Positions 19,337 through 43,200 of a DNA stretch of 49,476 nucleotides are shown here, piece after piece. The notes under the pieces were generated by a model. That model saw only the letters and a program-made list of their open reading frames with translations. It searched no databases and was not told the origin of the DNA. The position numbers and the translations under genes were made by a program. Origin of the DNA: Euryarchaeota archaeon UBA549 (lineage in GTDB: Archaea > Thermoplasmatota > Poseidoniia > Poseidoniales > Poseidoniaceae); NCBI GenBank assembly GCA_002495645.1, contig DAGF01000091.1:1-49476 (forward strand). Direction: 5' to 3'. Positions within the stretch are counted from its first letter, which is position 1; every line of letters starts with the position of its first letter.

Positions 19337-19425
19337 GGCATTACCAAAACGACACTGTTCAAGAGACTTCGGGCAACCCGACTCCTTCTTCTTTGGCTTT
19401 GGATTCAACCTAGTGCCCTCAGCGA

Positions 19426-24546: not shown

Positions 24547-24613
24547 CGGGGTTTGTAAGCCCTTTCCCACGATACGACACAAGCATGATAGCCTCATGTC
24601 CTCTGTTTGAGGC

Positions 24614-25441: not shown

Positions 25442-26257
25442 ATGGACCTCCTCGGCAACGACTACCCGTTTGTTTCAACCGCCCTTGAAGGCAAGCACGC
25501 CTTTGTCTGCGGTGCGAGCCAAGGTATCGGTGAAGCCACTGCAAAAATGCTCGCAAAAGCCGGAGCTGACGTGACGGTCTGTGCACGAAACGGAGCGGCG
25601 CTGACGGCACTTTGCGAAGAATTGGGGCGCATCGGTTCCGGTCGCCACCAAGCTTTGATGCTCGATTTGGAAGAAACGGACAGCATCGATTCGGCCTTTG
25701 CATCAGCCGTTGAAACGTTGGGTCCGGTTCACATTCTCATCAACAACGCAGGCGGACCTCCCGGCGGACCGCTGCTGAACAACGAAGTGTCTGACTTTGA
25801 GGCCCCGTTCCGACGGCACCTCCACGCCGCCCACACCTTGGTCAAAGCCGCATCACCAGCCATGGAATCCGAAGGCTACGGCCGTATCGTGCAAATCATT
25901 TCCACCTCGGTCAAGGAACCCATTCCCAACATCGGTCTTTCAAACACCCTTCGGGGAGCCATGGCCTCGTGGGCGAAATCCATGTCCAACGAACTCGCCC
26001 CCTGCATCACCATCAACAACGTTCTTCCTGGATTCACCGACACCGAACGACTCGGTAATTTGTCGGCCTCCATCCAAGAACGCACGGGGAAGTCCGCTCA
26101 GGCGGTTCGTGAAGGCTGGTTGAACCAGGTGCCCATTGGCCGACTCATCGACCCCCTCGAGACGGCCAGTGCCATCACCTACCTCTGCCTCCCTGCTTCA
26201 GGCGGCATTCGCGGCGTGAGTTTGGCCGTGGACGGCGGACGACTCCGCTCAATTTGA
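25442..26257 (+). CDS. short-chain dehydrogenase/reductase family protein (atypical active-site region)
   Basis: Rossmann motif VCGASQGIGEATAKMLAKAGADV, then NNAGG. The region aligned to YxxxK reads GLSNTLRGAMASWAKSM. PGFTDT follows. Confidence 0.8.
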   Translation: MDLLGNDYPFVSTALEGKHAFVCGASQGIGEATAKMLAKAGADVTVCARNGAALTALCEELGRIGSGRHQALMLDLEETDSIDSAFASAVETLGPVHILINNAGGPPGGPLLNNEVSDFEAPFRRHLHAAHTLVKAASPAMESEGYGRIVQIISTSVKEPIPNIGLSNTLRGAMASWAKSMSNELAPCITINNVLPGFTDTERLGNLSASIQERTGKSAQAVREGWLNQVPIGRLIDPLETASAITYLCLPASGGIRGVSLAVDGGRLRSI

Positions 26258-27115: not shown

Positions 27116-27167
27116 TGTGCCACACTCATTATGAGCCATGGCGGTGTGGGGTAGACGGTGAGTGTGC

Positions 27168-28418
27168 ATGGAGCATGATATCTTCTTCTCCATCTCCCAA
27201 ACGCCCGACGAAGACGGGCATATTCCAACCGAAGCCACGATGTTGAGAAATTATTTCCAACAACTGGCGTGTGCTGACCGCTTGGGCTTTGGCGTTGGCT
27301 GGATTGCTCAAGCCCATCTTTCCACAGAGACCCAGAAATCCAACCAGCGGCCTGTCGTGCCGCACTGGAAGGGTGAAGTCGGCCTTTGCACCGACTTCCC
27401 ACAACTTGCCTTGGAGTCCTTTCGGCGAACCAGCAACATCGAGATCGGCAGTGCCGTCGTTTCTATTCTCGCTTCAGGTGGCCCCATCGCACAGGCCGAA
27501 CGCATGGCGAACGTCTTGAGCTTGCACGGCCTTGACGAAAACGAACAACGATGCCTCCACGTCGGTTTTTCTGCCGGTCGCTTCGAGTTCATGGCGCGCC
27601 CGTACGGCGTCGTGCCCCGAAACGCCATCGAGGAAGCGGCGTGGCCCGCTTTGCGAGGTCAAATCTTCATGGAAGCTGCCGAAATTTTCCTCCGTTTGTT
27701 GCGAGGTGACGTCATCAATTCCACCATGATTCGCCCCACCGTCCTCACCCGAGCCAACTTCAGAAGCGACGAAGACTGGGAGGCCGTCCAGGACGCTGCT
27801 GTTGAATTTGAGGCGCTTGATGGTCGACCGGAAGAGATCAAGATCCCGTCAAGGTACGTGTTTGAAGACCTCAAAATCATCCCTTCGGACTTCCGTCGTT
27901 CCCTGTTGAAACTGGTCGCTGGCACGCACGACCCTCGGGCACAGACCTTCGTCAACACCATCCTCCCTGTCAAGGTGTTCAACCTCTCCATCACCTCGCC
28001 CGAGGTGATTGATGCAACCCACGAGCGCATGCGAGAGGTCTACCACACCGATGGTGGGGCGTGGAAAAGAAGCGATATGCCTCGAACCAGTTTTGTCTTC
28101 TTGAACGCAGAGGACGGCCTTTCGCCCGAGGAACAAAGTGCTGCTGCACACATCGAAGCAGACCGGGCACTGAGCGCCTATTGGAACGCCTTGGAAGGTA
28201 CCATCGACCCCGACAAAGTCTCGAAGGCGGCCAACAATGCGCTGATTGGAAACGTTGAGGAGGTGGCCAAACAGATGGTGGGGCGATTCCATCCCGAAGA
28301 CCGCATCATGGCGTGGTTTGATTTCTTCAACCACGACAGCGACCGAGTGTGTCGAAACATGACGGCGTACATGGAACAGGTCGTGCCTCGTGTAGAAGCC
28401 ATGTTGAGGGAGGCATGA
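27168..28418 (+). CDS. luciferase-like (LLM class) flavin-dependent monooxygenase/oxidoreductase
   Basis: N-terminal LLM pattern FFSISQTPDEDGH...ADRLGFGVGWIAQAHL with a TIM-barrel-like layout, about 416 aa. The track start 27162 is GTG; the ATG is at 27168 (MEHDIFF). Confidence 0.7.
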   Translation: MEHDIFFSISQTPDEDGHIPTEATMLRNYFQQLACADRLGFGVGWIAQAHLSTETQKSNQRPVVPHWKGEVGLCTDFPQLALESFRRTSNIEIGSAVVSILASGGPIAQAERMANVLSLHGLDENEQRCLHVGFSAGRFEFMARPYGVVPRNAIEEAAWPALRGQIFMEAAEIFLRLLRGDVINSTMIRPTVLTRANFRSDEDWEAVQDAAVEFEALDGRPEEIKIPSRYVFEDLKIIPSDFRRSLLKLVAGTHDPRAQTFVNTILPVKVFNLSITSPEVIDATHERMREVYHTDGGAWKRSDMPRTSFVFLNAEDGLSPEEQSAAAHIEADRALSAYWNALEGTIDPDKVSKAANNALIGNVEEVAKQMVGRFHPEDRIMAWFDFFNHDSDRVCRNMTAYMEQVVPRVEAMLREA

Positions 28419-29539
28419 AGATGGGCATTCATCACGATACCTTCTCTGCGGTCCAGCCTGGCAAACCGGGTTCAGCGATGTACCCAACCTCCCCACTCGG
28501 CGAAAAGGTGGAAGGCATCCCAACAGGACGGGACGTGGATTGGGAACCACTGGTGGATTACCGCCGCAACGGCGTGTCCGAAACAACGATTCACGGCGCT
28601 GTGGCGTGGGCTCACGGAGACGAAGTCATCCATTCCTTCGGAGGAAACGTCCTCTGCTACGGCCGCTCGATGATGAAACCCTTCATGCTCAAAGCCTTCA
28701 CAGAAGAGTTGGAGGATTGCTCGTGGGAGCAGAAAGCCATCGCTGTGGCCTCGCACAACGGGGATACCGAACACGTGGCGGCCGCCCAATCTCTGCTGAG
28801 CGAATCCGAGTGGCCATTGATGCTCACGCCGCTGGATGTCCCGTTGATCCAGTTCGGACGTCAGGTCCGCCGGCCGCGACGGTGGTTCCACACCTGCTCG
28901 GGTGAACACGCAGCGATTTTGCGAGGCTGCCGGATGAAAGGATGGAACCGTGCTGGCTACACCCTGCCAACCCACGAAGTCTTCCACGCCTACATGGAAC
29001 AGTTGCGAACCTACCTCGGCCCGGAGTGGGAACCGCTCCGCATCGCCAAGGACGGGTGCGGCTTGCCCACGGTCTCAAACACCGTTTCTGAGTTGGCTCA
29101 AATCTATGCTGGTTTGGTCCGCGACAAGGACGACGACTGGATTTGGGAGGCCATGGTCCGCCATCCTGACCTCGTGGGTGGCTTCAATCGTCTCGATTCC
29201 ACCGTACTCAAAGCCGGCGAGGGACGCGTCATCGCCAAAGAAGGCGCTGATGGATTGATCGGCATGGCCATTGAGCATCCCGACTACCCGAAGGGCCTCG
29301 GCATCGTGGTGAAAATCGCCCACGGATGGAATTCACAAGCAACCTGGTATGTAACTCGGGCCCTGCTGGGTGTCCTCGGCATCAATTTGCGAAACCCCTA
29401 CCCTCTTCACCGTCAGAAGGCCTTCATTGTTCCTGGTATCGTACCAGAACACTACCTTGATGTCCTTGAAACGGTTCCAACATGGGACGAATGGGACCCC
29501 GACCAAGACCGATGGCACTTCGATCACGAGGTGAGTTGA
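28415..29539 (+). CDS. asparaginase II family (PF06089-like) protein
   Basis: Motifs RSMMKPFMLKA, ASHNGDTEHV, CSGEHAAIL, KDGCGLPT, IAKEGADGL. The ATG at 28415 overlaps the LLM stop (ATGA). GAGGGAGG lies upstream at 28406..28413. Confidence 0.7.
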   Translation: MKMGIHHDTFSAVQPGKPGSAMYPTSPLGEKVEGIPTGRDVDWEPLVDYRRNGVSETTIHGAVAWAHGDEVIHSFGGNVLCYGRSMMKPFMLKAFTEELEDCSWEQKAIAVASHNGDTEHVAAAQSLLSESEWPLMLTPLDVPLIQFGRQVRRPRRWFHTCSGEHAAILRGCRMKGWNRAGYTLPTHEVFHAYMEQLRTYLGPEWEPLRIAKDGCGLPTVSNTVSELAQIYAGLVRDKDDDWIWEAMVRHPDLVGGFNRLDSTVLKAGEGRVIAKEGADGLIGMAIEHPDYPKGLGIVVKIAHGWNSQATWYVTRALLGVLGINLRNPYPLHRQKAFIVPGIVPEHYLDVLETVPTWDEWDPDQDRWHFDHEVS

Positions 29540-30987
29540 TGGAGCCGATTTTGAATTACATCAACGGCGAATTTCTTCCCTCAACATCAGGACGAACGAT
29601 GGAAACGGTCAACCCTGCCAACGGTCAACCCATCACCACGCTCCCACGTTCTTCCGCCGATGATGTGGAATTGGCCACGGCAGCCGCCCATGAGGCAACA
29701 CCATCGTGGTCGGCCACCACCATGGAAGAACGCATCACGTGGCTTCATCGAATTGCTGATGCCTTGGAGGAAGAGGCCGAAACGATCGCTCAACTTGAGA
29801 GCATGGACACGGGAAAACCGATTTCCCTTGCACGAAGGGTGGACGCCGCCCGTTCTGTATCCAATTTCCGATTTTTCGCAGATTTTGGAAAGAGCCACAC
29901 CGAGCCAACCTTTGCTGACCACGGTGCTGTCAACCATGTCCACCGCTCCCCTATTGGATGTGTGGGCCTCATCACGCCATGGAATCTTCCGCTCTACCTG
30001 CTCACGTGGAAGGTCGCACCCGCCTTGTTGATGGGCAACACCATCGTGGCTAAACCTTCGGAATTGACCCCAATGACGGCCAATCACCTGGCAAAAATCC
30101 TGACCAGCATCAACTTCCCGAAAGGTGTGTTCAACCTTGTCCACGGCTTGGGCCCTGAAGTTGGTCAGGCCATTGTTGAGCATCCAGAAATTCGTGGTAT
30201 TTCGTTCACCGGTGGAACGGCGACCGGCAAAATCGTCGCCGCCACCGCCGCACCGATGTTCAAGAAACTCTCCTTGGAGTTGGGAGGCAAAAACGCCACC
30301 ATCGTCCTCGACGATGCACCACTCGAAGACGTGATGGACGGCATCGTTCGAGCGTCGTTTACCAATTCCGGCCAAGTCTGCTTATGCGGCTCTCGTGTTC
30401 TGGTCGACGCCTCCATCTACGACCGATTCAAGGCCATGTTTGTTGAAGCAGTCAACACCATTCGCGTGGGCGACCCAACCTTGGAAGCTACCGTCATGGG
30501 TTCCGTGATCTCCAAAGACCACCAAACCAAAGTTGAGTCCTACATCGAACTGGGACGCCAAGAAGGAGGCGTGGTGCTGACGGGTGGAACAGCGGCCGAA
30601 AGCCCGGTGGACGACGTACCATCCGAAGGTGCGTTTTTGCGACCAACCGTCATCGAAGGACTCAGTTACACCGCTCGTACCGCAACCGAGGAAATCTTTG
30701 GCCCCGTCGTAACTCTTCATTCCTTTAACTCCGAGCAAGAGGCCATTGACATGGCCAACGCCACCCAGTACGGTTTGGCGGGCTCGGTGTGGACCGCTGA
30801 CACCGAACGTGGGCACGCCTTTGCTCAACGCATGGACACCGGTATTGTGTGGGTCAACACCTGGTTGAACCGGGATCTGAGAACGCCCTTTGGTGGTGTC
30901 AAACAATCGGGCGTTGGACGGGAAGGCGGCACATGGTCGCTCAACTTCTTTTCCGAATTGACCAACATCTGCGTCCAGCAACCTTGA
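29539..30987 (+). CDS. NAD-dependent aldehyde dehydrogenase, 2-hydroxy/2-aminomuconic semialdehyde dehydrogenase-like
   Basis: MEPILNYINGEF..., VSNFRFFADF (characteristic of the muconic semialdehyde DH clade), ITPWNLPL, catalytic Glu in LELGGKN, catalytic Cys in GQVCLCGSR. The ATG at 29539 shares one nt with the upstream TGA (TGATG). Confidence 0.85.
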   Translation: MEPILNYINGEFLPSTSGRTMETVNPANGQPITTLPRSSADDVELATAAAHEATPSWSATTMEERITWLHRIADALEEEAETIAQLESMDTGKPISLARRVDAARSVSNFRFFADFGKSHTEPTFADHGAVNHVHRSPIGCVGLITPWNLPLYLLTWKVAPALLMGNTIVAKPSELTPMTANHLAKILTSINFPKGVFNLVHGLGPEVGQAIVEHPEIRGISFTGGTATGKIVAATAAPMFKKLSLELGGKNATIVLDDAPLEDVMDGIVRASFTNSGQVCLCGSRVLVDASIYDRFKAMFVEAVNTIRVGDPTLEATVMGSVISKDHQTKVESYIELGRQEGGVVLTGGTAAESPVDDVPSEGAFLRPTVIEGLSYTARTATEEIFGPVVTLHSFNSEQEAIDMANATQYGLAGSVWTADTERGHAFAQRMDTGIVWVNTWLNRDLRTPFGGVKQSGVGREGGTWSLNFFSELTNICVQQP

Positions 30988-31025
30988 GAACACATGTTCA
31001 AATGCTTCCGAAGGGAGGTTTGGGC

Positions 31026-31754
31026 ATGGACGATGAAACGCTCCCACTCTTCGTCCTGCCCATGGTGCTTTTTCCGGGGGAGTTGCAGGAATTACGTGTC
31101 TTTGAACCACGCTATCGCCAAATGTTGGACACATGCATTCTGGACGAGCGACCGTTTGGCCTCGTCATGAACGACCCCTTTGAACCGGCCAACGGATGGG
31201 ACGGCCCACGAAGACATGGTTGCGAAGCCATCATCCTCAACCACGAAACGAGGGGAGTGAACCACTTCATCACCATCACCGGCGGTCGACGATTTTTCAT
31301 CGAGGAGGTCATTGAGCCGGCACTGCCACCGTTTTCTGACCCCAGCATGGCCGCTCTTGTCGAGGAGGGTTTGGCGCCCGATGTGGATACGCTGCTGCAA
31401 CATCTCCCAGAAGACGCGACCCATAGCAAGTTGTACATCTCGGCGAAGGTGACGTATTTGGAGGAGGTCGGCGAACTGGGCGAAGAGGACCAAGCCTACC
31501 TTCGCAGCCTCACCAGCAACATCGTCCACCGTGCCGGACGAGGCATGAACGTCGACGCCACCGTCTTGGACGGGTGGGTTGAATCCATTTGTGAAGAGCA
31601 AATCAACGAGCGGAAAGAGTCGATTTACAACATCGCAGCCCTGTGTCTCAACGACCTTGAAGCACGCCAACAACTGCTTGCCTGCTCCAGTGCTGCCGAG
31701 GCTTTGCACGAACTCCAGACCCATGTTTTCGGCTTCGTTGACGAGGCAGAATGA
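31026..31754 (+). CDS. stand-alone LON N-terminal (substrate-binding, PUA-like) domain protein
   Basis: [37 protein letters not shown] is the canonical start of the LON_substr_bdg domain. ATG at 31026 is preceded by AAGGGAGG. No AAA+ or protease module is present. Confidence 0.75.
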
Positions 31755-31797
31755 ACGAAGGCGACGAATTGAAAACACGACGGGCGGTGGAAGGTCC

Positions 31798-32619
31798 ATG
31801 TCCGTCTACAGCGAAGCACGGAAGGTGACCACCCATACGCTGCAAGAAATGAAGCGTGCAGGCGAGAAAATCACCATGCTCACCGCCTACGACTACTCGC
31901 TGGCTCGCCTTGTCGACCAAGCAGGTGTTGATGTCATTCTCGTCGGTGATTCCGCATCGAACGTTATGGCTGGTCAAGTCACCACGGTACCGATGACCCT
32001 CGACCACATGATCTACCATGCCCAGTGTGTTGAGCGAGCCGTTGACCGCGCCCTGTTGGTGGTTGACATGCCGTTTGGCACCTACCAAGGCAATTCTCGT
32101 CAAGCCCTTGATTCCGCCATTCGCATCATGAAGGAGTCAAGCGGACACGCTGTGAAATTGGAAGGTGGAGCCGAAATCGTGGAGTCCGTGGAGCGTATCC
32201 TAACCGCTGGCATCCCCGTCATGGGTCATTTGGGCTTGACACCTCAGTCCATCTACAAGTTTGGGACCTACTCTGTACGAGCCAAGGAAGAGGAAGAAGC
32301 TGAGAAGTTGATCGCCGACGCCAAAGTGCTCGAAGCCGCTGGCTGCTTTGCCATCGTGCTTGAAAAAATTCCTCGGGACCTCGCCAAGCGTGTTTCGGCC
32401 GCATTGAGCATTCCCACCATCGGCATCGGTGCTGGACCTGATGTGGACGGTCAAGTGCTCGTCCTTCACGACCTCTTGGGCATCACGATGGATTTCTCAC
32501 CACGCTTCCTTCGCCGATACCTGAACCTCGCCGAAGAAATTGACGGGGCCATCAAGGGCTATTGCGCTGATGTGCGTTCAGGGGATTTCCCCAACGACGA
32601 GGAATCGTACACCTCGTGA
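31798..32619 (+). CDS. panB: 3-methyl-2-oxobutanoate hydroxymethyltransferase (ketopantoate hydroxymethyltransferase)
   Basis: [69 protein letters not shown] at 31798 within track ORF 31579..32619. Confidence 0.92.
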
Positions 32620-33129
32620 TCACATCATCAGGCTGTGATAGAGCAACGAGCCGCCTAAGGCACCGATGTTGACGCCCATGGTGTGCCAAATGGCCAATCG
32701 GAACGGAGGAAGATGAAATCGCCACCACGAAGTGCTGACCCAAATCCAAAGCACGACCGTGAGGTACCCGCCGCACACAAAACCACCCATCCCGGTGGAC
32801 CAAACAAACATCAACGGGAGGCCGAGGGCTGCGATACCACCGAGGTAATCGAGCCACATCGATTGAGGATGAGGCGTAAGCCAGCGGTGGAGCAGGGGGG
32901 AGAAGAGCATCATGATCAGCAAACCACCTTGGGGTGGATTGGGCAGACCGTAGGTCAATTGCGGTGAAATGAAGGCTTGCCATAACGCACCTGCTGCCAT
33001 CCCGAACAGCGTGGGAAAGACCACATTCACCCACGTTTCCGCCCATGTGGCCGACATCGGTTGTTGAATCTGAACGCTTGTCTGAGCCGATTCCTCCGGA
33101 GCCGTATCCTCCAGAGTTGGTTCTCCCAT
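32620..33129 (-). CDS. hypothetical membrane protein (about 4 TM)
   Basis: 169 aa with hydrophobic segments (VVFPTLFGMAAGALW, GLLIMMLFSPLL, LGGIAALGLPLMFVW, FVCGGYLTVVLWIWV). Preferred over the Arg-rich overlapping ORF 32552..33256. Its stop abuts the panB stop (TGATCA). Confidence 0.55.
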   Translation of the reverse strand: MGEPTLEDTAPEESAQTSVQIQQPMSATWAETWVNVVFPTLFGMAAGALWQAFISPQLTYGLPNPPQGGLLIMMLFSPLLHRWLTPHPQSMWLDYLGGIAALGLPLMFVWSTGMGGFVCGGYLTVVLWIWVSTSWWRFHLPPFRLAIWHTMGVNIGALGGSLLYHSLMM

Positions 33130-33224: not shown

Positions 33225-34127
33225 ATGGGCAAGGGCCAGATTGTAGCCGGATGCATAGCTCCGCATCCACCGCATCTTGTTTACGCAGAAAACCCGCCCC
33301 AAAACGAACCCGTTGCGGAAGGTGGCTGGGAACAACTGCGTTGGGGATACGAACGACTCCGAGCCTCACTTTCCGAGCACGATTACGACGCCATCGTCCT
33401 TCTTTCCCCACACTGGCAAACCTATGTTGGCACCCATTTCCTTGGCCTCCCCCATTTTGAGGGCCTATCGGTTGACCCCATCTTCCCCAACCTCTTCCGC
33501 TACCACTACGACATGAACGTCGATGTTGAATTGGCGCAAGCGATTCACGACGAGGCAGCCAAAGCGGGCCTTCCGGTGAAGATGATGGAAAATCCAGACT
33601 TCCGAGTCGATTACGGCACCATCACCACCGGCCACTTGTTCAACCCTGACTGGGACAAGCCGCTCGTGGTCATTTCAAGCAACCGTTCAACGGCGTACTA
33701 TTCGGTTGAAGTGATGCAGGAAATCATGATCGAACTGGGCAGAGTCACCCGAAAAGCCATTGAGGCCAGTGGAAAAAGAGTCGTTGTCCTCGCCAGCAAT
33801 TCACTCTCACACCGACACTTCACGACCGAATCCGAAGTGCCCGAAGACATGAGCAAAGAGCACATCACCAGCCACGCCATGCACCTGTGGGACATGCGAA
33901 TGATCGATTACATGCGAAGCGGTCAAGCTCAACGCATCCTCGATGAGATGCCGGAATTCACCGAACAAGCCATCGCCGAGAGCGACGGGGGCGGGCTCTC
34001 TTGGTTGCTGTCCACCCTCGATGTGCCCGATTACCCCGCCATTCTCCACGGCTACGGGACCATTATTGGCACCGGTAACGCTGTGGTTGAATGGCCGTGT
34101 TATGCACACGAGGTGAACGACGAATGA
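33225..34127 (+). CDS. class III (LigB-family) extradiol ring-cleavage dioxygenase, catalytic beta subunit, 2-aminophenol 1,6-dioxygenase AmnB-like
   Basis: MGKGQIVAGCIAPHPPHLVYAENPPQNEP..GGWEQLRWGYERL, VDPIFPNLFRY, FRVDYGTITTGHL, SNSLSHRHF, PEDMSKEH, GYGTIIGTGNAVVEW. The track start 33219 is TTG; the ATG is at 33225. Confidence 0.8.
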   Translation: MGKGQIVAGCIAPHPPHLVYAENPPQNEPVAEGGWEQLRWGYERLRASLSEHDYDAIVLLSPHWQTYVGTHFLGLPHFEGLSVDPIFPNLFRYHYDMNVDVELAQAIHDEAAKAGLPVKMMENPDFRVDYGTITTGHLFNPDWDKPLVVISSNRSTAYYSVEVMQEIMIELGRVTRKAIEASGKRVVVLASNSLSHRHFTTESEVPEDMSKEHITSHAMHLWDMRMIDYMRSGQAQRILDEMPEFTEQAIAESDGGGLSWLLSTLDVPDYPAILHGYGTIIGTGNAVVEWPCYAHEVNDE

Positions 34128-35566
34128 GCCAAGGCGAAATCGTGGCGTCCTACGTCGTCCCCGTTCACCCCCACACGGTGTTGGCGCCCGACCAAAATCC
34201 AGGGTGGCGCCGCTTACGTGATGCTTTTGACGGGGCCGCTCAAACCATTCAAGACCTCGACGCAGATTTGCTCATCATCTACTCCACCACTTGGCCCTCC
34301 ATTATTGGCCATCAGATTCAGGCCGACCCGAACCCCGAATGGGTCATGGTCGACCACGATTTTCACGACCTCGGGTCCATCCCTTACTCCTTCAACATCG
34401 ATGCAGACTTCGCCCATGCCTGGAACGAAGCCAACAAACAACGAGGCCTGCAGAGCCGATGTGTGAACTACAAAGGATTCCCCATCGACGTCGGTTCGGT
34501 CGTGGCCTTGACCCTGCTGAACCCGGACAACAGCATTCCCGCCGTCATCGTCTCGTCAAACATGTACGCCAACCGAAGCGAGACCACGGTGCTGGCCAAA
34601 TCCTGCTTGGACGTCATCAAGGCCCAAGGTCGTCGTGCCGTCGCCATCACCGCCATGTCGCTGTCCAACCGAATGTTCACTGACTTTATCCAGCCTGAGG
34701 AGGATAAGATCCACTCGCTCAAGGACGATGAGTGGAACAGGAAGATTCTGGAATTCCTTGAACAAGGTCGCCTCGAGGATGTGGGTCAACTCTCACGAAC
34801 CATTCACCGACAAATCCGAGTGCAAAAGGTGGTGGCGTTCAAACCGATGTGGTGGCTTTCCGCCATGAACGGGAATCGAAACGATTTGACCGGACGCATC
34901 CTCGCTTACGAAGCGATTCACGGCGCCGGTGGTGCCGTGGTTCACATCGACCCAACATCGACCGGCGTGGGCGACAAAGAATACGACGAGGACGACGTGG
35001 AATACTTCCACGGCGAACGCGGTGTGTTGGAAGGTGCAGAGGAGAGCCAGACGGACGCAATCCAAAACACCGACGCTGGCGTCGATGCAACAGATGATGC
35101 AAGGGCAAGCGACAGCGGCCCTGCACTTTGGGACCCGACGGAGGCCAAAGGTTCGGTGAACACCGATGCTGCGCCAAAACCAGTGGGCGCTTATCCTCAT
35201 GCCCGCAAGGTTGGCGACATGCTCTTCCTCTCCGGCGTGGGGCCTCGTCAGCCTGGTACCAACGCCATTCCCGGAGGGCCCATCCACGATGAAAACGGGG
35301 AGCCGCTCGAGTATGACATCAAAGCCCAAACACATGCGGTTGTCAACAACGTGAAGCGAATTGTCGAGGAAGCAGGCGCTACCATGGACCAAGTGGTTGA
35401 TGTCACCACCTTCCTCGTGGACATGAAACGAGACTTTGCTGGCTACAATGAGGTGTGGGCTGAAACGCTTGGAAAGGTCGGACCCACGCGAACAACCCTC
35501 GCTATTGACGCTCTACCAACCCCCATTGCTGTCGAGATGAAGGTCATCGTCCACATGCCGGAATAA
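34124..35566 (+). CDS. fusion protein: LigB-family alpha-like subunit (AmnA-like), acidic linker, and RidA/YjgF/L-PSP deaminase domain
   Basis: The ATG at 34124 overlaps the upstream TGA (ATGA). N-domain at 34124..34954: LLIIYSTTWPS, VNYKGFPIDVGS, KDDEWNRKILEFLEQG. Asp/Glu-rich linker at 34955..35155. RidA domain at 35156..35563: APKPVGAYPHARKVGDMLFLSGVGP...TTFLVDMKDF..YNEVW...PTRTTLAIDALP..IAVEMKVIV. Confidence 0.8.
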   Translation: MSQGEIVASYVVPVHPHTVLAPDQNPGWRRLRDAFDGAAQTIQDLDADLLIIYSTTWPSIIGHQIQADPNPEWVMVDHDFHDLGSIPYSFNIDADFAHAWNEANKQRGLQSRCVNYKGFPIDVGSVVALTLLNPDNSIPAVIVSSNMYANRSETTVLAKSCLDVIKAQGRRAVAITAMSLSNRMFTDFIQPEEDKIHSLKDDEWNRKILEFLEQGRLEDVGQLSRTIHRQIRVQKVVAFKPMWWLSAMNGNRNDLTGRILAYEAIHGAGGAVVHIDPTSTGVGDKEYDEDDVEYFHGERGVLEGAEESQTDAIQNTDAGVDATDDARASDSGPALWDPTEAKGSVNTDAAPKPVGAYPHARKVGDMLFLSGVGPRQPGTNAIPGGPIHDENGEPLEYDIKAQTHAVVNNVKRIVEEAGATMDQVVDVTTFLVDMKRDFAGYNEVWAETLGKVGPTRTTLAIDALPTPIAVEMKVIVHMPE

Positions 35567-35672: not shown

Positions 35673-37064
35673 ATGGTTGTTGAAAAAACAGTTGAACTGG
35701 CCCGCTCCATCGGACTCAAGACGTTGGTGATTCTTTCGCTGTCCTCCATGTTGGGTTCAGGGATTTTCCTCCTCCCTGCATTTGCACAGGAAGTGGTGGG
35801 CCCGGGAATGTGGTTTGCCTTCCTCCTTGCCGGCAGCGTGGTCATCGCCAGCGCGTTCTCAAAGGCTGAATTGGCCAGTGCCATGCCTCAGTCCGGCGGA
35901 TTCTATGTTTACGCCGAACGCACCTATGGCCACCTCGTCGGCACCATCAGTGGCCTTGGCCTCTTTGCATCCTTCATGTTGAAATCTGCGTTCGCCTTGG
36001 TTGGTTTTGCAGCCTACATGAAGGTCATCACCGACCACTACGGTATCGAAGACATCAATTCAAACGCCATCGCCATGGTCTTGCTCGCCTTTATTCTCCT
36101 CGTAAACTTGACAGGTGTCAAGGCCATCAAGAAAGTTCAGATTCCCATCGTCACCGGTGCGATGGCCATGGTCGTCGTGCTGTGCATCATGGCCTTGGCC
36201 TCGGGCGACATGGATTTCGGCCGGCCCGTTGAGGACTTCAATCCAGTGAGCATCCAAATGGGAACCGCAGCAGCACTCGTGTTCGTAGCATACTCGGGAG
36301 CCATCAAGGTCGGCGCCATCGGTGGCGAGGTGATGGACCCTGAAACGAACCTCCCTCGAGGCATGATTCAATCCTTGGTCATCGCCACCTTGCTCTACGC
36401 CACCGTCGCCTACATCATGGTCGCTACGATGGACCCGGGATGGCACATGGTTGACGGCCACGCCGTTGAGAACCCAATTACGGTCTTCGCCCAATCGGTT
36501 GCTGGAACAGCCGTTGTGTTGATCGCCTCCTTGGTGGCCATCATCGCCATGGCATCCATGGCACTTGCTGGTGTTCTCTCCTCATCGCGCTTCATTTATG
36601 CCATGGCCAAAGACGGTGTTCTTCCCGCTTCACTTGGAGAACTCAACGAGCGCTACAAGACGCCGCACTGGCCCATTTTACTCACGGGGCTGCTCATGGC
36701 TGTCTCAATCTATTCCTTTGACGTTCACGTCATTGCAGAGCTCGCCTCTGGATTCATCCTCATGGTCTTCATCGTCCTCAACCTCACGGTGGTCGTATTG
36801 CGCCGAGCCGGTCCAAAACACGAGTGGAATCCACCATACCGTTCGCCATTGTACCCGCTACCCCAGATTTACGGCACAATCGCCGGGATGTTCATGCTCG
36901 TCTTGATGGGCAAGAAGGCCCTCTTCGGTGGTGCAGGAGCGATCGTTCTCGGCCTCATTGCATGGTATGCATACGGGCGGAAGAATGTTCAGCCAAGAGA
37001 TGGGCCAACCCCGCTCAGCACCTTCCTTGGCCGAGACAGCACCGTGAGTGAGGAAAGCGAGTAA
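35673..37064 (+). CDS. amino acid permease (APC superfamily)
   Basis: 463 aa, about 12 TM. N-terminal LKTLVILSLSSMLGSGIFLLPA is an APC-type signature. Confidence 0.85.
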   Translation: MVVEKTVELARSIGLKTLVILSLSSMLGSGIFLLPAFAQEVVGPGMWFAFLLAGSVVIASAFSKAELASAMPQSGGFYVYAERTYGHLVGTISGLGLFASFMLKSAFALVGFAAYMKVITDHYGIEDINSNAIAMVLLAFILLVNLTGVKAIKKVQIPIVTGAMAMVVVLCIMALASGDMDFGRPVEDFNPVSIQMGTAAALVFVAYSGAIKVGAIGGEVMDPETNLPRGMIQSLVIATLLYATVAYIMVATMDPGWHMVDGHAVENPITVFAQSVAGTAVVLIASLVAIIAMASMALAGVLSSSRFIYAMAKDGVLPASLGELNERYKTPHWPILLTGLLMAVSIYSFDVHVIAELASGFILMVFIVLNLTVVVLRRAGPKHEWNPPYRSPLYPLPQIYGTIAGMFMLVLMGKKALFGGAGAIVLGLIAWYAYGRKNVQPRDGPTPLSTFLGRDSTVSEESE

Positions 37065-37590: not shown

Positions 37591-40194
37591 TTACTCATGA
37601 CGAATCCATTCGCCATCGGAGGTTACTTCCCAATACTGCAGTTCTTCTGAAACATCGACATACCAGCCAGTTTGTCCTTGAACGGTCGAGGGCGTAGCCT
37701 GCATGACGCCGACCTTTCCTGCCTCTTCAGCGAGCGCTTTCATCGATTCAAGCGTCAAGCCGTGGCGCTCGTGAAGCGGGGTGTCGTCAACCACTTCTGA
37801 TGAATGACCAACCTCTTCCTCCTCGTCGTCCTCATCTTCATCAAAGGTCTCTTCCATCCATTCATCCTCGGAGGCCTGAGCTGCCTCTGCAGCCTTTCGG
37901 GTCAGCGTGACCAAGACGGCCAAGAGCAGGAAGAGAAGAACCGCAGCCATGGTCATGGCGGTGTTGGTTGAACCCACTGCACCTCCCAGAAGAACATCAT
38001 CAACATCGTAGAACGTTTGTGCGAGCAGGCCACTCCACCGAATGGTGCAAGAGCGGTCGGTTCCACCGTTTTCGATGTCAACTTCCCAGGTGCCGTTGGT
38101 CACAAAGGAGGCGGGCCCTGACGTGCAGGTAACGCTGGTGTTTTCTTTGGGAATGCTGAGCGTGTTTCCATAGGCGTCGGTTGCAAAGGCGTTCATCAAC
38201 ACAACATCGCCCTCAGCGATGGAGTCTCGGCTCATCGAAGCCTGAATCCGAATGGGCGCGCCTGCCTCAATCGTTAATGGAATGGTGTGCGAGGCACCCT
38301 CATCTTCGAGAATTAATTCGTAAGAACCCACCTTCTTGCCGGTGAATTGCCAATAACCAAGGCCCGTGGGAGAAACGTCCAACTCTCCAAGCGAAGCATT
38401 GAGCATCGTGGTAACCGACGTGGACTCGGCGATGTTGCCGTGAATATCGACCACCTGTATGAAAAGGTCGTGGGGCAGGCCAGCGTTGACGACCAAGCCC
38501 TCATCGGCATCGGTGACAAGTGCGTGCGCATCTCCGGTGACCACCGTCAAGCGAACCGTTGCAAACACACCGTCAGCGTTGACCCGAAGCTCATGACCTC
38601 CGACGGTGGTGGCCGTCCAACGTCCGTCGTTCAACAGCATGTCAAGCGTGATGTCCTTGCCGTCCAATGTCCAATTGAGTGCAACATCGCCGAGTTCGTT
38701 TCCATAAGCATCAAAAAACGCTGGATTGAGAGCCAACTCACCGTCGGCAGGAACTTGACTTCCTTCACCGTCCAAATTGATGAAGGCGAGGCGACCTGGA
38801 CGAACATCAAACGCGGCATCGGTGGCAAACATGGCCCCCGTCGTGTTGTCAAACCAGCTTCCATCAAACCGCCACGATATTGCACGCTGTGCTTGAAGCA
38901 AAACAAAGGAAGGGTCCGGTGTCAACTCGGCTTCATCTCCCATGGTCATGGCGATGGTCCCGTCCACAACCCAGCGGTTTCCTTTCACATCCTCCGCCAT
39001 GAGTTCAAGAACGACTTGATCGCCAGCGGCGGGTTCCCGTGGTGTAATTTGGAAGCCGATGTCAATCGCTCGGCCGTGCTCCACATCGAGTGTCAATGAA
39101 CTGCTCACGGTACCGTCAACACCGGTAATGACCGCAGGCCCAGTGGCTGAAGGATTCCAAAACACCCGTGCATCGTCGTCAACCGACAAGCCACCAGAAG
39201 AAGCCGTGAGAGCATGGATGGAGGGTGAGACAAAGCCGATGTAGCCGTTGGCATCGCGGCGTTCAAACACCAACTCGTAGGATTCGCCTGCCATGAACAT
39301 CTCTGGTGTGTCAACCACCATCAGTTCCGATGCAACAGCATCACCCGGAATCACATGAAGCGTGGTGCTGCCCGTGATGTTTCCAGCGGACACGGTGATG
39401 AGCCAATCACCGGTGTTGGTCGCGAGGTATTCCCCCTGTGCGTTAAACGAGCCGTTTTCGGCGAACCAAGCCAGGGAACCCACCGTGGACAACGGCATTT
39501 CATAGCCGTTGATATCGACAAGATGTGGCGTGATTTTTTCGATGGTTCCTGCACGAACCATCAGCGGGTCATCGAAAACAAATTCGTGAGGCGCACCTGC
39601 TGCGACCGTGATGGTAGCACGTGTTTCCAACTGGTTGTACCTCACTCGGACATCGTAATCTCCGATGGACTCTGCTGCCCATGTGGGTTGCCCGTGGCCG
39701 ATGTATTCGCCATTGATGTCCCAAACCATGGACGCTGCGCCAGGCATACGGTTGCCTCTGGCGTCGAGCAGGTCAGCGGTCATCGTCGTTGATTCGAGAA
39801 CACCTACGTTGAGGCGAGTGATTTCAATCGAGGTGGGGACGCCGGCTTCAACCGTGATGTTGTGGTATCCCCGAAGGCCATCGTGCTCGGCGATGATTTC
39901 CACCAAACCGGCGGACCATGGATAGAACAAACCGTCTTCCGTGATGCTGCCGTTACTTGTCGACCAACTGATTTCACCTGAAACGAGGTTGTTGACAGGG
40001 TCGTAAATCAGGGCTTCAAACGAGACGACTTCATCAGCGGACATGGAGGCAGGTGGGTCATCGATGACGACCCTGTCGGCTGTCCCTGTACGCTGAATAA
40101 CGGGCTTCTCGTCCAAGAGGGTCGGTACGTTCGTGGACAGCGTCCCCAGGAGAACGAGCGCAACGAGAGCAACGCACGTTTTCGGGAAATTCAT
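37591..40194 (-). CDS. surface protein D: signal anchor, about 7-8 Big_2-like Ig domains, C-terminal TM, acidic tract, Trp-rich C-terminal module
   Basis: 867 aa. MNFPKTCVALVALVLLGTLS. Domain boundaries of the type ITVEAGVPTSIEI, ITVAAGAPHEFVF, LHVIPGDAVASEL, LDVEHGRAIDIGF, LTVVTGDAHALV, LTIEAGAPIRIQ. TM AAVLLFLLLAVLVTLT followed by RK. Tail: EDEWMEETFDEDEDDEEEE...TGWYVDVSEELQYWEVTSDGEWIRHE. Confidence 0.85.
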   Translation of the reverse strand: MNFPKTCVALVALVLLGTLSTNVPTLLDEKPVIQRTGTADRVVIDDPPASMSADEVVSFEALIYDPVNNLVSGEISWSTSNGSITEDGLFYPWSAGLVEIIAEHDGLRGYHNITVEAGVPTSIEITRLNVGVLESTTMTADLLDARGNRMPGAASMVWDINGEYIGHGQPTWAAESIGDYDVRVRYNQLETRATITVAAGAPHEFVFDDPLMVRAGTIEKITPHLVDINGYEMPLSTVGSLAWFAENGSFNAQGEYLATNTGDWLITVSAGNITGSTTLHVIPGDAVASELMVVDTPEMFMAGESYELVFERRDANGYIGFVSPSIHALTASSGGLSVDDDARVFWNPSATGPAVITGVDGTVSSSLTLDVEHGRAIDIGFQITPREPAAGDQVVLELMAEDVKGNRWVVDGTIAMTMGDEAELTPDPSFVLLQAQRAISWRFDGSWFDNTTGAMFATDAAFDVRPGRLAFINLDGEGSQVPADGELALNPAFFDAYGNELGDVALNWTLDGKDITLDMLLNDGRWTATTVGGHELRVNADGVFATVRLTVVTGDAHALVTDADEGLVVNAGLPHDLFIQVVDIHGNIAESTSVTTMLNASLGELDVSPTGLGYWQFTGKKVGSYELILEDEGASHTIPLTIEAGAPIRIQASMSRDSIAEGDVVLMNAFATDAYGNTLSIPKENTSVTCTSGPASFVTNGTWEVDIENGGTDRSCTIRWSGLLAQTFYDVDDVLLGGAVGSTNTAMTMAAVLLFLLLAVLVTLTRKAAEAAQASEDEWMEETFDEDEDDEEEEVGHSSEVVDDTPLHERHGLTLESMKALAEEAGKVGVMQATPSTVQGQTGWYVDVSEELQYWEVTSDGEWIRHE

Positions 40195-40206: not shown

Positions 40207-43200
40207 TCAATCCGTGTACTCTTGCCACTCTTCCTCGCCAGGATTACGGTACCACCAGGTACCGTCTTCGTCTTCCCACCATTCCACGCCGTCTTCGTCA
40301 AAGGTGGTTTCGAGTTCCTCCTCGACCTCCTCATCCTCGGCAGGTGCTTCTTCGGGTGGTGGACCAGATGGACCGGGTGCAGGACCGGATGGACCGGGAG
40401 CGGGGCCGGTTGGGCCGGGAGCAGGACCTGTTGGACCTGGCGCAGGGCCGGTTGGACCGGAGGGGCGTTCGTCGTCGTCGTCATCGTCGTAGTCGTCATC
40501 GTCCCAGTCGTCGCTGCCGCCGCTGTTTCGCATGAACATGACACCGAGCACCAAGAGAACGATGGCCACGAGTGCAAGCAAACCAGCACCAACATAGTAC
40601 AGTGTTCCACCTGCTTCAAAGAAGCCTTGGAAGTTGCCGATGACGGTTATTTCTTCGTTGACGCGAACGGCGCCAACACTGACCGTGATGGTTTGCGGTC
40701 CATCGTCAAGCGTGGTGACGGTCCAAAGGTCGGAGGAGGTCATCGACGATGTTCCACGACCTGTGGATTCAACCTGGACACTGCCTGGAACGGGGATCTC
40801 GTTGTCAAAGGCGTCGAAGGCTCGGATGGCGACCTCAAGGCTGGCAAGTTGCTCAAGGCTATCGGTTGAGAGGTTGACCTCCAAGCGGGCCACAGTGTTC
40901 TGAGCTGAAACCGTAATTTCAGCGGTTGAAACAGCACCGCCCACGCTGTATTGGAGCGTGTGGACGCCAGCCACTTCGGCATCGTAGGTGTAGGTTCCCT
41001 CCGATGAGGTGATGATGCTCAAGGTTGGAACGCTTGCTCCGTCTTCGGTCCATTCCACGTCTTGCGGGAATTGGTTCCCATCAGCGTCCGTTCCCGTCAC
41101 TTGAATGTCAACTCGGTCACCAGCGGTCGGGCTGGTGGTCGAGAGGTCTGCTGCCACCGTGACAGCTTCACCGTGCAGCACCGTGATGGAGACACTATCC
41201 GAGATGTTGAAGCCCGTTCCGCTGATGCTGTAGGCATCAATTCGCCATTCACCGACCGTGGTCGCTTCCCAGCGCATGCCATCAAGCAACAACTGCGTCG
41301 TGATGTCCTGAACATCGCCGGTTGCTACGTTGACCTCAAGCCAAGTCAATTCGTCCGAGGAGATTCGGTTGTTGTCCGTGTCAAAGAGTTCCGAAGTGAA
41401 GTCAACCGCGAAATCTGAGGTCACCTCAATGAGAGCACCCGTTGAACGAAGTGGGTCGTTGGCCACAGCTTCGATGGTGACGGTGTTGAGCATACCGTGG
41501 TCGACGGTGATGTTGATGGAGACGCTGAGGTCGGTGTTTTCGTCACTGTAGGTTGCCGTTAGCGTGTATGGCAAATCAGAGGCGTAGTAGGGTGTGAAGG
41601 TGGTGGCGTCGCCGGTCAAGACCTCAAGGAAATTCGAAGCATCGCTGATGGTCGGGTGGTCAAGCGACCAGTTGGATTCTGGAACCGCCCACTGATTGCC
41701 TTTGGCATCGATGGCGAAGATCTTCGCTTCCAGCGTATCGTCAGCCGTGATGTCAAAGTGTTGCCAGGTGGCAATCTCATCATCCACCGTAATGCGGAGC
41801 GTTTGGGTTTGGCCACGAGAAACATCGATGACAATTTGCGTCAATTCGGTCTCATACCGTGCTTCAAGAATCTTGGATCCGGTCTTCACCGGGTCCCATG
41901 TGGCTGGCGCACCGGGCGTCAACTGCCCGTCCGATGTCTTCGTCCAATTATCGGCTGGCAAAACGACGGTCAAACGATTTCCGCGCACGTCAACCCGCGT
42001 GGTGTTGATGTAAACGCGGTCATCAGCAGTGATGGACGTCGAAGAGGCGTTCAGTTCAAGGTAATCGATAGCGCCGTGTCCAACGGTGATTTGGAGTTCG
42101 TCCATGGCTCCTGAAGCAGATGTGAGATTCAACCACCAAACGCCGACATGGTCTGGGAAGTACTTCTGGTCAATTTCCGAGTAGTTTCCGTTGGTGGTGC
42201 TCCATGTCAGGTCTCCAGCGTCGGCGATGTCCAAAGCGTTGCCGAACTGGTCGTACAAATCGATGCTGATGTCGCACCATACGCCGGCAGGCACCGTGCC
42301 TTCGCATCCACCCAATACGAAGTAAGATGGAACACCGGCTTCGACCGTAACCGCCACATCCACAAACTCACCCGAAGGCACGTTGTGAGCCACACGGACA
42401 ACGTGTGAACCGACAGCGTAAGGCTGGAAGATGTTGGGCACAACAGCGCTCATGCTACCGTTGGTCGGGGTATAGGTGATCGGCTCGCCGGGCACCATAT
42501 TGCCGTGCTGGTCAACCATGTTGGCCGTGATAGTCAAGGTCTCGTCAGCCGTGATGGTCGCCGAGAGCGGCGTTACAACGAGTTCAGTTGCGGCACCGGG
42601 CGTGACCGTGATGTTTTGATGGCCGCAGACCAGACCGAAGCAGGAGGTGATGGTCGTGACACCAGCCGTGTTTGGCGTGAACAACCCGTTGCTCCCGATG
42701 TTTCCGGAAGAGGACGACCACGTCATCGGCGGGGATTGAACCATGGAGAGATGGTCGTACGCCACGGAGTTGAAGTTCACAGCAGTATCTGCATCGGTGG
42801 TTGTTGTGCCGCCAGATGAACTGATGGCCACGCTGGTGATGTTGGTCGTGTTGAACAGGATTTGTGGCCTGTAGTTGACGTTGGTTGCCGTACCGGAGTA
42901 GAACGTTGCATGGGCATAGCCGTTGTTATTGGGCGTTCCAATGATGACCCAAGCCTGCTGGTTGGAGATGGTCATGCCAGCGGTGCTGACATCGAACCAA
43001 ACCCATCCTGTGGTGTCAACATTCACCACGGTTGTCGATACGGCGTCGCCATAATCCACGCCCGCCTGCATACCGGGAGCACCCCATGTTCCGCCTGCTG
43101 TGGTGCCGTTCCAGGTGGCAGAGGCAGCGCCCCAGTTGGCATTGGTGATGGGGTGGACGTTGAACGCAACCGATGTTGCTCCCTGAACCGAAGTCCACGA

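Follow-up and report, generated by a model that had tools for sequence, protein, structure and literature searches.

A Marine Group IIa gene cluster with an AmnA-like dioxygenase subunit fused to a 2-aminomuconate deaminase-type Rid domain, predicted to act on o-aminophenols

Introduction

What reactions would be served by a ring-cleavage dioxygenase subunit that continues, in the same polypeptide, into a deaminase-type domain, and from where would its substrate come? The question is raised by two adjacent genes, ORF1 and ORF2, on a 49.5 kb stretch of DNA (49,476 nucleotides; contig DAGF01000091.1 of assembly GCA_002495645.1, Euryarchaeota archaeon UBA549), which is referred to throughout as the window. 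ORF1 resembles AmnB, the catalytic beta subunit of 2-aminophenol 1,6-dioxygenase, and ORF2 joins a domain resembling the non-catalytic alpha subunit, AmnA, to a domain of the Rid family. Archaea of Marine Group II (MGII) are among the most abundant planktonic archaea; they are uncultured, and the substrates on which they live are largely inferred.

Results

The gene pair

ORF1 (33225..34127, plus strand) runs from an ATG to a TGA codon and encodes 300 amino acids; the product is AmnB-like, with the features of the catalytic beta subunit in extradiol dioxygenases for o-aminophenols. ORF2 (34124..35566, plus strand; ATG start, TAA stop, 480 amino acids) comprises an AmnA-like domain, a linker and a Rid domain. 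The two frames share an ATGA stop/start overlap at 34124..34127, and a Shine-Dalgarno-like GAGGTGA (34110..34116) lies eight bases 5′ of the ORF2 start; together they form a predicted translational-coupling junction (34110..34127, plus strand). An earlier note on this DNA had described two LigB genes with this overlap and had quoted sequence motifs from them, and the ORFs, the overlap and all of the motifs were found in the sequence and its translations. The Pfam search that it proposed returned LigB in ORF1 (2e-23), and both LigB (9e-8, residues 16-267) and Ribonuc_L-PSP (PF01042, 2e-24, residues 348-477) in ORF2. A sequencing frameshift or assembly artefact is ruled out by the recurrence of the same architecture in 3188 matches to ORF2 and of the junction across loci, where a 4-nt NTGA overlap was present in 71/85 and the Shine-Dalgarno-like motif in 78/85.

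Over its whole length ORF1 aligns with the solved beta subunits of 2-aminophenol 1,6-dioxygenase, 8ihg_A (E 2.3e-110, ~57% identity) and 3vsg_B (E 4.5e-106, ~54% identity). An alignment with both shows that ORF1 has H, H, E, H and Y where CnbCb has H13, H62, E251, H195 and Y129, positions which we take, from the structural literature on CnbC and LigB, to be Fe ligands or catalytic residues; these five positions bear out the claim that ORF1 carries the hallmarks of a catalytic subunit. A LigAB, gallate or HpaD identity for the pair was considered and rejected. ORF1 scores 372 bits against AmnB vs. 45 bits against HpaD in the PDB, and its profile scores fall far below cutoff for HpaD_Fe (93 bits, cutoff 316) and MhpB (28 bits, cutoff 291), which leaves the AmnB/AmnA-like affiliation proposed in the earlier note in place. 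Identity to the AmnB proteins of other fusion operons is 53-59%. As part of the pathway assignment given below, and with the same degree of confidence, ORF1 probably holds the dioxygenase active site and is predicted to be an Fe(II) extradiol enzyme for o-aminophenol.

Domains of the fusion protein

The AmnA-like, non-catalytic alpha domain occupies residues 1-275 of ORF2 (34124..34948, plus strand), of which residues 6-275 match solved alpha subunits (3vsg_A, 8.5e-40; 7txy_A, 3.7e-38). V, T, Q, N and V stand at the metal-ligand and catalytic positions, a condition comparable to that of CnbCa, and by its aligned residues the domain is a degenerate paralogue devoid of metal ligands. The N-terminal part of ORF2 had been read as a non-catalytic alpha subunit, and both the 3vsg_A match and the lost ligand positions agree with this.

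An acidic linker of ~70 amino acids follows (residues 276-345; 34949..35158, plus strand), with 20 D/E vs. 4 K/R and a net charge of -16. Its proximal part contains a conserved motif, GDKEYDEDDVEYFHGERGVL (residues 283-302; 34970..35029, plus strand). When 84 orthologs were compared with the window copy, both flanking domains were 83-84% identical, and conservation in the linker was 0.81 over residues 276-302 and 0.27, with indels, over residues 303-340. The motif is discernible in a lineage at 51% identity (P0121) and missing from bacterial fusions with short linkers; it may serve in docking. No secondary structure was assigned to the linker in an AlphaFold2 model of the fusion (low confidence, pLDDT 44).

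Residues 346-480 and the stop codon (35159..35566, plus strand) constitute the Rid domain, which is of the 2-aminomuconate deaminase (AMD; AmnE) type. Its top PDB match is AmnE itself (6izh_A, E 1.7e-27 to 1.9e-26; next match 2e-21), with 99.5 bits to 6izh vs. 79.9 bits to PH0854, the best generic RidA. An insertion of ~12 residues is common to this domain and AmnE, where generic RidAs show a gap of 12-13 residues. The inter-subunit cleft of AmnE is lined by S35, G36, E88, R117 and K135 (PMC6742747); in the window protein the SG pair is kept, R456 and K473 are equivalent to R117 and K135, and D426 is a conservative substitution at E88. The hydrophobic Lp3 loop, L-P-x-P, is as in AmnE. These features mark the domain as a specialised AMD type rather than a generic RidA, and the earlier description of an acidic linker leading into a complete RidA/YjgF domain stands, with AmnE as the nearest relative. 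The two types differ in activity: a fungal AMD speeds the deamination of 2-aminomuconate and not the hydrolysis of 2-iminopropanoate, human RIDA does not accelerate 2-aminomuconate deamination, and uncatalysed decay of 2-aminomuconate proceeds with a half-life of ~160 min (bioRxiv 10.64898/2026.06.05.730449). Trimerisation is needed for Rid function, since the active sites lie between protomers, and AmnE is a homohexamer held by Arg56-Met96 hydrogen bonds (PMC6742747). From its sequence the window domain is likely to be a trimer.

A predicted three-step pathway

An AmnC-like aldehyde dehydrogenase (ALDH) of the 2-aminomuconate / 2-hydroxymuconate 6-semialdehyde dehydrogenase type is encoded 2.2 kb 5′ of ORF1 (29482..30987, plus strand; the true start probably lies downstream of 29482). 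Its top 7 PDB matches are all 2-aminomuconate 6-semialdehyde dehydrogenases, with E values down to 1.3e-141, and the gene is kept in the cluster in archaea and bacteria. We consider it probable that the dioxygenase pair and the ALDH convert an o-aminophenol, most likely 2-aminophenol or a close analogue, to 4-oxalocrotonate and ammonia. AmnB/AmnA would cleave the o-aminophenol with O2 to 2-aminomuconic 6-semialdehyde, the ALDH would oxidise this with NAD+ to 2-aminomuconate, and the Rid domain would release 4-oxalocrotonate and NH3.

The conserved cluster in Poseidoniaceae

Window proteins include several archaeal hallmarks (LonB with an AAA-LID domain, an Arc_PepC_II peptidase and GCD14), the G+C content is 56.5%, and the nearest relatives of the fusion gene are in a Tara "uncultured euryarchaeote" metagenome-assembled genome (MAG; 98% identity) and in Poseidonia / Poseidoniaceae MAGs (93%). 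By these relationships the window belongs to Marine Group IIa (MGIIa), and the planktonic archaeal host suggested in the earlier note is placed in the Poseidoniaceae by its closest genome matches. Scans of the window for tRNA genes and Rfam families gave no matches.

The earlier note had treated the pair alone and missed a conserved upstream cluster, as well as the bacterial link to the kynurenine formamidase KynB described below. In Poseidoniaceae the order is [BD-FAE]-SDR-TPR-unk418-AspII-ALDH-[Lon-N-domain protein, PanB, membrane protein]-AmnB-fusion-[permease]. The first gene of the conserved cluster encodes the SDR, a short-chain dehydrogenase/reductase (25442..26257, plus strand; PF00106, 3e-39), which holds the same position in four bacterial loci (L081, L088, L089 and L091). 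unk418 (27162..28418, plus strand) encodes a divergent protein of the luciferase-like (flavin/F420) monooxygenase (LLM) family, with a Bac_luciferase match of E 0.009 in the window copy and of 28.6 bits, over the cutoff of 27.9, in its L081 ortholog. All of the top 37 matches in a fold search were LLM-family proteins, among them type II Baeyer-Villiger monooxygenases; the AlphaFold2 model used was weak (low confidence, pLDDT 54), and the search serves only as corroboration of the ortholog's Pfam match.

AspII (28349..29539, plus strand) is a class-3 (Rhizobium-type) asparaginase homologue (PF06089, 3e-47, matching from ORF residue 69; ~1e-15 to ReAIV/ReAV in the PDB). Neither of the two Ser-Lys tandems nor either Zn cysteine of class-3 asparaginases (PMC12292245) has been lost from it, and it is a probable amidohydrolase. 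With 82-95% identity across Poseidoniaceae, AspII is, together with AmnB, among the best-conserved genes of the region, and RSMMK, DGCGLP and KEGADG are invariant in all 70 cluster-associated copies. The zinc-ligand Lys of ReAIV/ReAV (CSGKH) is replaced by Glu in 63/64 MGII copies. This substitution was considered as a signature of the cluster and rejected, as it is specific to MGII and most bacterial orthologs have Lys.

On the far side of the SDR lies a BD-FAE / alpha-beta hydrolase, an esterase or amidase (24614..25360, plus strand; PF20434, 2e-16). It adjoins the SDR in Poseidoniaceae only (synteny over 32 loci), and its membership of the pathway is uncertain. An identity as an AFMID-type kynurenine formamidase was unsupported, the match to Drosophila KFase (E 0.004) being far surpassed by those to generic esterases. 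Directly 3′ of the fusion is an APC-family amino-acid permease gene (35673..37064, plus strand; PF13520, 4e-40), which occupies this position in 64/83 loci and is not found in the bacterial operons. Permeases at loci L001-L080 fall into identity classes of ~84-89%, 64-66% and 46-50% to the window copy, which suggests that the positional permease has been replaced by paralogues or evolves fast. The permease may possibly import the substrate.

In Poseidoniaceae the cluster is split, in the window at 30849..33129, by three unrelated genes, which encode a Lon N-terminal-domain protein, the ketopantoate hydroxymethyltransferase PanB and a 169-amino-acid membrane protein (minus strand). In a few species (L047, L048 and L050) the monooxygenase-AspII-ALDH block is inverted. 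Elsewhere in the window, very large minus-strand ORFs lie at 40207..49395 (3062 amino acids), 37591..40194 (867), 15335..19408 (1357), 10929..14414 (1161) and 21568..24615 (1015). In the Pfam scan, which covered the four shorter ones, most gave no or weak matches. A GDSL lipase carrying a thrombospondin-type repeat is among them, and the 867-amino-acid ORF ends in an acidic tail. All probably encode proteins of the secreted or surface type that is typical of MGII.

Bacterial versions of the cluster and KynB

In L081, L088, L089 and L091 the genes SDR-unk418-AspII-ALDH-AmnB-fusion follow one another without interruption and overlap, so that one gene order is common to Poseidoniaceae and four bacterial contexts. 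Directly 3′ of the fusion, 7/8 bacterial contexts have a PF04199 protein that matches KynB in the PDB at 7e-49; an isatin hydrolase identity was rejected in favour of KynB (2e-5 vs. 7e-49), and the TIGR03035 scores are 206-214 bits (cutoff 223). TDO, kynureninase, KMO and ACMSD were not seen at the loci examined.

Beside the bacterial fusions with short linkers the LLM and SDR genes are missing, and AspII, ALDH, AmnB and the fusion remain. Three such loci (L090, L092 and the P0489 contig) have a DUF4920 gene just 5′ of AmnB, and all three have a block of carboxyltransferase, biotin carboxylase, biotinyl carrier and methylmalonyl-CoA mutase genes 3-4 kb 3′.

Distribution and phylogeny of the fusion

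A search of 5.8 billion proteins with ORF2 gave the 3188 matches mentioned above, and each of the 120 listed has PF02900 and PF01042 and a length of 471-488 amino acids. GTDB species genomes contain 453 relatives, and the best 80 of these, CM001443.1 among them, all belong to Poseidoniales, Poseidoniaceae or Poseidonia. Divergent full-length fusions at 51%, 41% and 40% identity came out of an exhaustive search through 1.84 billion representatives, and with the 41%-identity lineage as query more than 120 further two-domain clusters (420-501 amino acids) were recovered. Bacterial carriers include the cultured Oligoflexus tunisiensis, where the RefSeq name is "Rid family hydrolase", and Bdellovibrionales MAGs. 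The fusion is retained in two domains of life and in lineages that share just 35-50% identity, and AmnB stands immediately 5′ of it at every locus examined.

Names given to the fusion are solely automatic: "Rid family hydrolase", "2-aminomuconate deaminase" and, in IMG, a dual RidA/ring-opening dioxygenase label. If the question is whether the fusion is common and already annotated, it is common, and its annotation goes no further than these names. Neither the fusion nor the pathway is described in the searchable genomic and transcriptomic papers retrieved for MGII with aminophenol, aminomuconate or dioxygenase, the searchable MGII genomic surveys make no mention of an aromatic ring-cleavage capability, and the searchable text of a comparative-genomics paper on the Rid family does not mention an AmnA-Rid fusion. 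That the earlier note knew of no description of the fusion, nor of the pathway in planktonic archaea, agrees with this search. The fusion is neither unique nor confined to archaea: at least 80 Poseidoniales species and more than 120 bacterial clusters have it, as do thousands of metagenomic proteins.

A tree of alpha domains, built by neighbour joining alone, groups the fused alpha domains approximately in one clade, which excludes CnbCa and the alpha subunit of ARO and has a modest bootstrap of 59. In the same tree the MGIIa domains form a subclade with 100% support that is nested among bacterial members. This nesting and the 57% identity between the archaeal and Pseudomonas AmnB proteins suggest that the cluster has moved between the domains, and the archaeal copy is probably a product of such a transfer. 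One contig labelled Verrucomicrobiales bacterium ARS100 (L004, NZEQ01000011.1) has a gene order identical to that of Poseidonia, and its proteins, like P0070 and P0367 (both labelled Candidatus Woesearchaeota), are 87-94% identical to those of the window. All three records almost certainly represent MGII contigs that were put in the wrong bin or wrongly labelled.

Other Rid and AmnA-like fusions

A 2.9-kb single-gene contig (JGI 3300017277; L087) encodes P0127, in which an ALDH is followed by three tandem AmnE-type Rid domains. The ALDH part is 54% identical to the window ALDH, and by its domain content P0127 is a covalent Rid trimer in a fusion independent of AmnA-Rid. A protein with three Rid domains (P0122) is encoded by the marine diplonemid Diplonema japonicum (EukProt), and the same Rid subtype occurs in the very long proteins P0205 (4770 amino acids) and P0210 (4312 amino acids); P0127, P0122, P0205 and P0210 are probably from protists. 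In a Rhodospirillaceae MAG (L084 and L085; P0193, P0187 and P0207), an AmnA-like LigB domain occurs joined to a LivM-type branched-chain amino-acid ABC permease, and P0193 additionally carries a BD-FAE/Abhydrolase_3 esterase. Further genes of the operon encode LysR, two other LigB proteins, the ABC ATPases and a Liv-type binding protein. Here again AmnA-like domains are linked with amino-acid-type transport and an esterase.

Discussion

Relation to known systems

The known 2-aminophenol dioxygenases AmnAB and CnbCaCb (Pseudomonas sp. AP-3 and Comamonas CNB-1; 8ihg, 3vsg-3vsj) and the actinobacterial ARO dioxygenase (7txy) have the same beta-then-alpha order as the window pair. The window beta subunit is 54-57% identical to AmnB/CnbCb and the alpha domain is similarly degenerate (~31% identity). 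Unlike its counterparts, the window alpha has a C-terminal extension of ~200 residues (linker plus Rid) and an archaeal host, the locus has neither a nitroarene context nor downstream meta-pathway genes, and the fused alphas form their own clade. AmnE (Pseudomonas sp. AP-3, 6izh; NbaF/AMD type) is the closest solved relative of the Rid domain, with the insertion, the Arg117/Lys135 equivalents and L-P-x-P in common (PMC6742747), but is a free-standing hexamer of 142-residue subunits, whereas the window Rid domain is fused to AmnA and has Glu in place of Arg56.

Bacterial amn/nba/cnb clusters, of which the modified meta-cleavage cluster amnRJBACDFEHG of Burkholderia xenovorans LB400 is an example (PMC3790839), likewise encode dioxygenase, semialdehyde dehydrogenase and deaminase, all of which lie within 6 kb in the window. 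The window locus differs in having no decarboxylase, hydratase, aldolase or acetaldehyde dehydrogenase; the last was absent both from the Pfam-scanned window ORFs and from the called genes of the bacterial loci. Present instead are the SDR, the luciferase-like monooxygenase, the class-3 asparaginase homologue and, at the bacterial loci, KynB. The ARO microcompartment of Actinobacteria co-localises the same early enzymes, presumably on account of the unstable, toxic semialdehyde, and a 2-aminophenol precursor has been suggested as its natural substrate (PMC10470539). There a protein shell brings the enzymes together, whereas the window locus has a covalent fusion and no shell genes. The bacterial kynurenine pathway (KynA/KynB/KynU; in Burkholderia and Pseudomonas also 2-aminomuconate semialdehyde dehydrogenase (AMSDH) and AMD) resembles the bacterial versions of the fusion operon, where KynB is found together with an AMSDH-type ALDH and a deaminase of AMD type. 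That pathway cleaves the ring with the cupin HAAO rather than with LigB-type AmnBA, and the archaeal loci lack KynB.

Assignment of the pathway and its alternatives

Several observations weigh against the proposed conversion of an o-aminophenol to 4-oxalocrotonate and ammonia. In the canonical pathway dehydrogenation precedes deamination; the fusion thus connects steps 1 and 3 and is no simple channelling pair. The ALDH scores under the equivalog cutoffs of NCBIfam (OH_muco_semi_DH, 546 bits, cutoff 693; HpaE, 535 bits, cutoff 638), and in Poseidoniaceae three unrelated genes, one on the opposite strand, lie between ALDH and AmnB, so that co-regulation is not evident. 4-Oxalocrotonate decarboxylase, hydratase, aldolase and tautomerase were found neither in the window by Pfam nor at the 92 loci, and tblastn detected no KynB in the window or at any archaeal (Poseidoniaceae) locus. 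In the Rid domain E393 stands at the hexamer position R56 of AmnE, with M96 and P126 kept, and the oligomeric state is uncertain. The AlphaFold2 model of the fusion, built on a 21-sequence alignment at 85-90% identity (pLDDT 44), is too poor for analysis of fold or interfaces.

The same enzymes might directly cleave an o-aminophenol of the kynurenine pathway that bears a side chain, 3-hydroxykynurenine or 3-hydroxyanthranilate, with the LLM as a kynurenine hydroxylase and AspII freeing aspartate after ring opening. The tight bacterial linkage to KynB, the amino-acid permease next to the fusion in MGII, and a patchy LLM+SDR module beside persistent AspII, ALDH, AmnB and fusion genes would all fit such a scheme. 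ORF1 is about as close to the enzymes characterised on 2-aminophenol (54-57% identity) as to the AmnB proteins of the other fusion operons (53-59%), and so does not look like a member of a re-specialised subfamily. None of kynureninase, KMO and ACMSD was seen at any locus, and we know of no precedent for C-C or vinylogous-amide hydrolysis by an asparaginase homologue. We regard direct cleavage as unlikely.

A second alternative concerns the order of steps. The Rid domain could deaminate 2-aminomuconic semialdehyde to 2-hydroxymuconic semialdehyde before cyclisation, with dehydrogenation by the ALDH afterwards, in which case the fusion would join consecutive steps. In the degradation of 4-amino-3-hydroxybenzoate by Bordetella sp. 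10d a deaminase reportedly acts directly on the ring-fission semialdehyde. The covalent attachment of Rid to the dioxygenase is in keeping with this order, the top NCBIfam model of the ALDH is a 2-hydroxymuconic semialdehyde dehydrogenase, and dehydrogenases of this kind take both substrates (PMC10470539). The Rid domain is nearest to AmnE, however, whose substrate is 2-aminomuconate, and the best solved relatives of the ALDH are 2-aminomuconate semialdehyde dehydrogenases, while the ALDH-3xRid protein P0127 is compatible with either order. Deamination at the semialdehyde stage therefore appears distinctly unlikely.

LigB-type dioxygenases also serve in natural-product biosynthesis. The pair could in principle make a picolinate- or pyridine-type product by ring cleavage, with Rid and ALDH trimming side products; picolinate arises spontaneously from the cleavage product (PMC10470539), and no downstream catabolic genes lie nearby. 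Such a role is improbable given the steady linkage to an AMSDH-type ALDH and an AMD-type deaminase, which would divert flux from picolinate, and the occurrence of the cluster as a conserved single copy in streamlined heterotrophs, without biosynthetic scaffold genes. A generic RidA, quenching 2-aminoacrylate or other imines and fused by chance with no pathway role, would account for the canonical RidA Arg, the overall fold and the 88 bits to TIGR00004 (under cutoff), but is hardly credible beside the top match to AmnE, the insertion not found in generic RidAs, the retention of the fusion over lineages 35-50% identical in two domains of life, the use of the same subtype in an independent ALDH-Rid fusion, and the inactivity of AMD-type proteins on 2-iminopropanoate (bioRxiv 10.64898/2026.06.05.730449).

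A possible assembly

The earlier note had proposed that the fusion tethers deamination to ring cleavage; the attachment to the ring-cleavage subunit is real, but in the canonical pathway the two steps are not consecutive, with the ALDH step between them. AmnAB is an alpha2beta2 tetramer that dimerises via beta, and 2-aminomuconic semialdehyde cyclises spontaneously to picolinate (PMC10470539). Because Rid active sites lie between the protomers of a trimer and the dioxygenase is alpha2beta2, Rid trimers would be expected to cross-link several dioxygenase tetramers into a larger assembly, an idea indirectly supported by the covalent Rid trimer of P0127 and by the actinobacterial microcompartment. 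Such an assembly would concentrate enzymes 1 and 3 of a pathway with unstable intermediates, and would probably act by co-localisation and not by direct channelling.

Source of the aminophenol

Since the bacterial fusion is usually followed by KynB, the likely precursor of the aminophenol is a compound of the (N-formyl)kynurenine type and not a nitroaromatic pollutant; the KynB link, AspII and the adjacent amino-acid permease together suggest a tryptophan-derived substrate. We put forward, as a tentative scheme that we hold to be doubtful, a new route from kynurenine to aspartate and 2-aminophenol, in which the steps before ring cleavage are drawn from gene content and chemistry. N-Formylkynurenine would be deformylated by KynB in bacteria and perhaps by the BD-FAE hydrolase in MGII, where kynurenine might alternatively be imported through the permease. 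Baeyer-Villiger oxygenation of the aryl ketone of kynurenine by the luciferase-like monooxygenase would give the beta-aspartyl ester of 2-aminophenol, which would rearrange to N4-(2-hydroxyphenyl)asparagine. AspII would hydrolyse the latter to L-aspartate and 2-aminophenol, and AmnB, AmnA-Rid and ALDH would carry 2-aminophenol to 4-oxalocrotonate and ammonia. The Baeyer-Villiger scheme is coherent in its chemistry and uses most of the conserved genes, but the patchy distribution of the monooxygenase weighs against it, and we give it a low probability. A literature search for kynurenine with Baeyer-Villiger or aminophenol routes found no description of such a pathway.

Significance

The enzymes at this locus are known ones, but the fusion and the cluster architecture in which they occur are widespread and had not been described, and the archaeal family concerned is uncultured and ecologically dominant. 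The cluster, which at least 80 Poseidoniales species possess, gives MGIIa a predicted oxygen-dependent capability for aromatic ring cleavage. The AmnA-deaminase and ALDH-3xRid fusions provide Rosetta-stone evidence for the first three enzymes of the aminophenol pathway as a physical unit, and AmnA-Rid would be a covalent alternative to the actinobacterial microcompartment for the same unstable intermediates. The same operon occurs in cultured Oligoflexus tunisiensis, which makes the hypothesis open to genetics and biochemistry. The association with KynB and AspII points to natural, tryptophan-derived aminophenols and not pollutants, and possibly to a new route of kynurenine degradation; if that route is real, one of the most abundant archaeal groups could harvest photo-oxidised tryptophan in the surface ocean.

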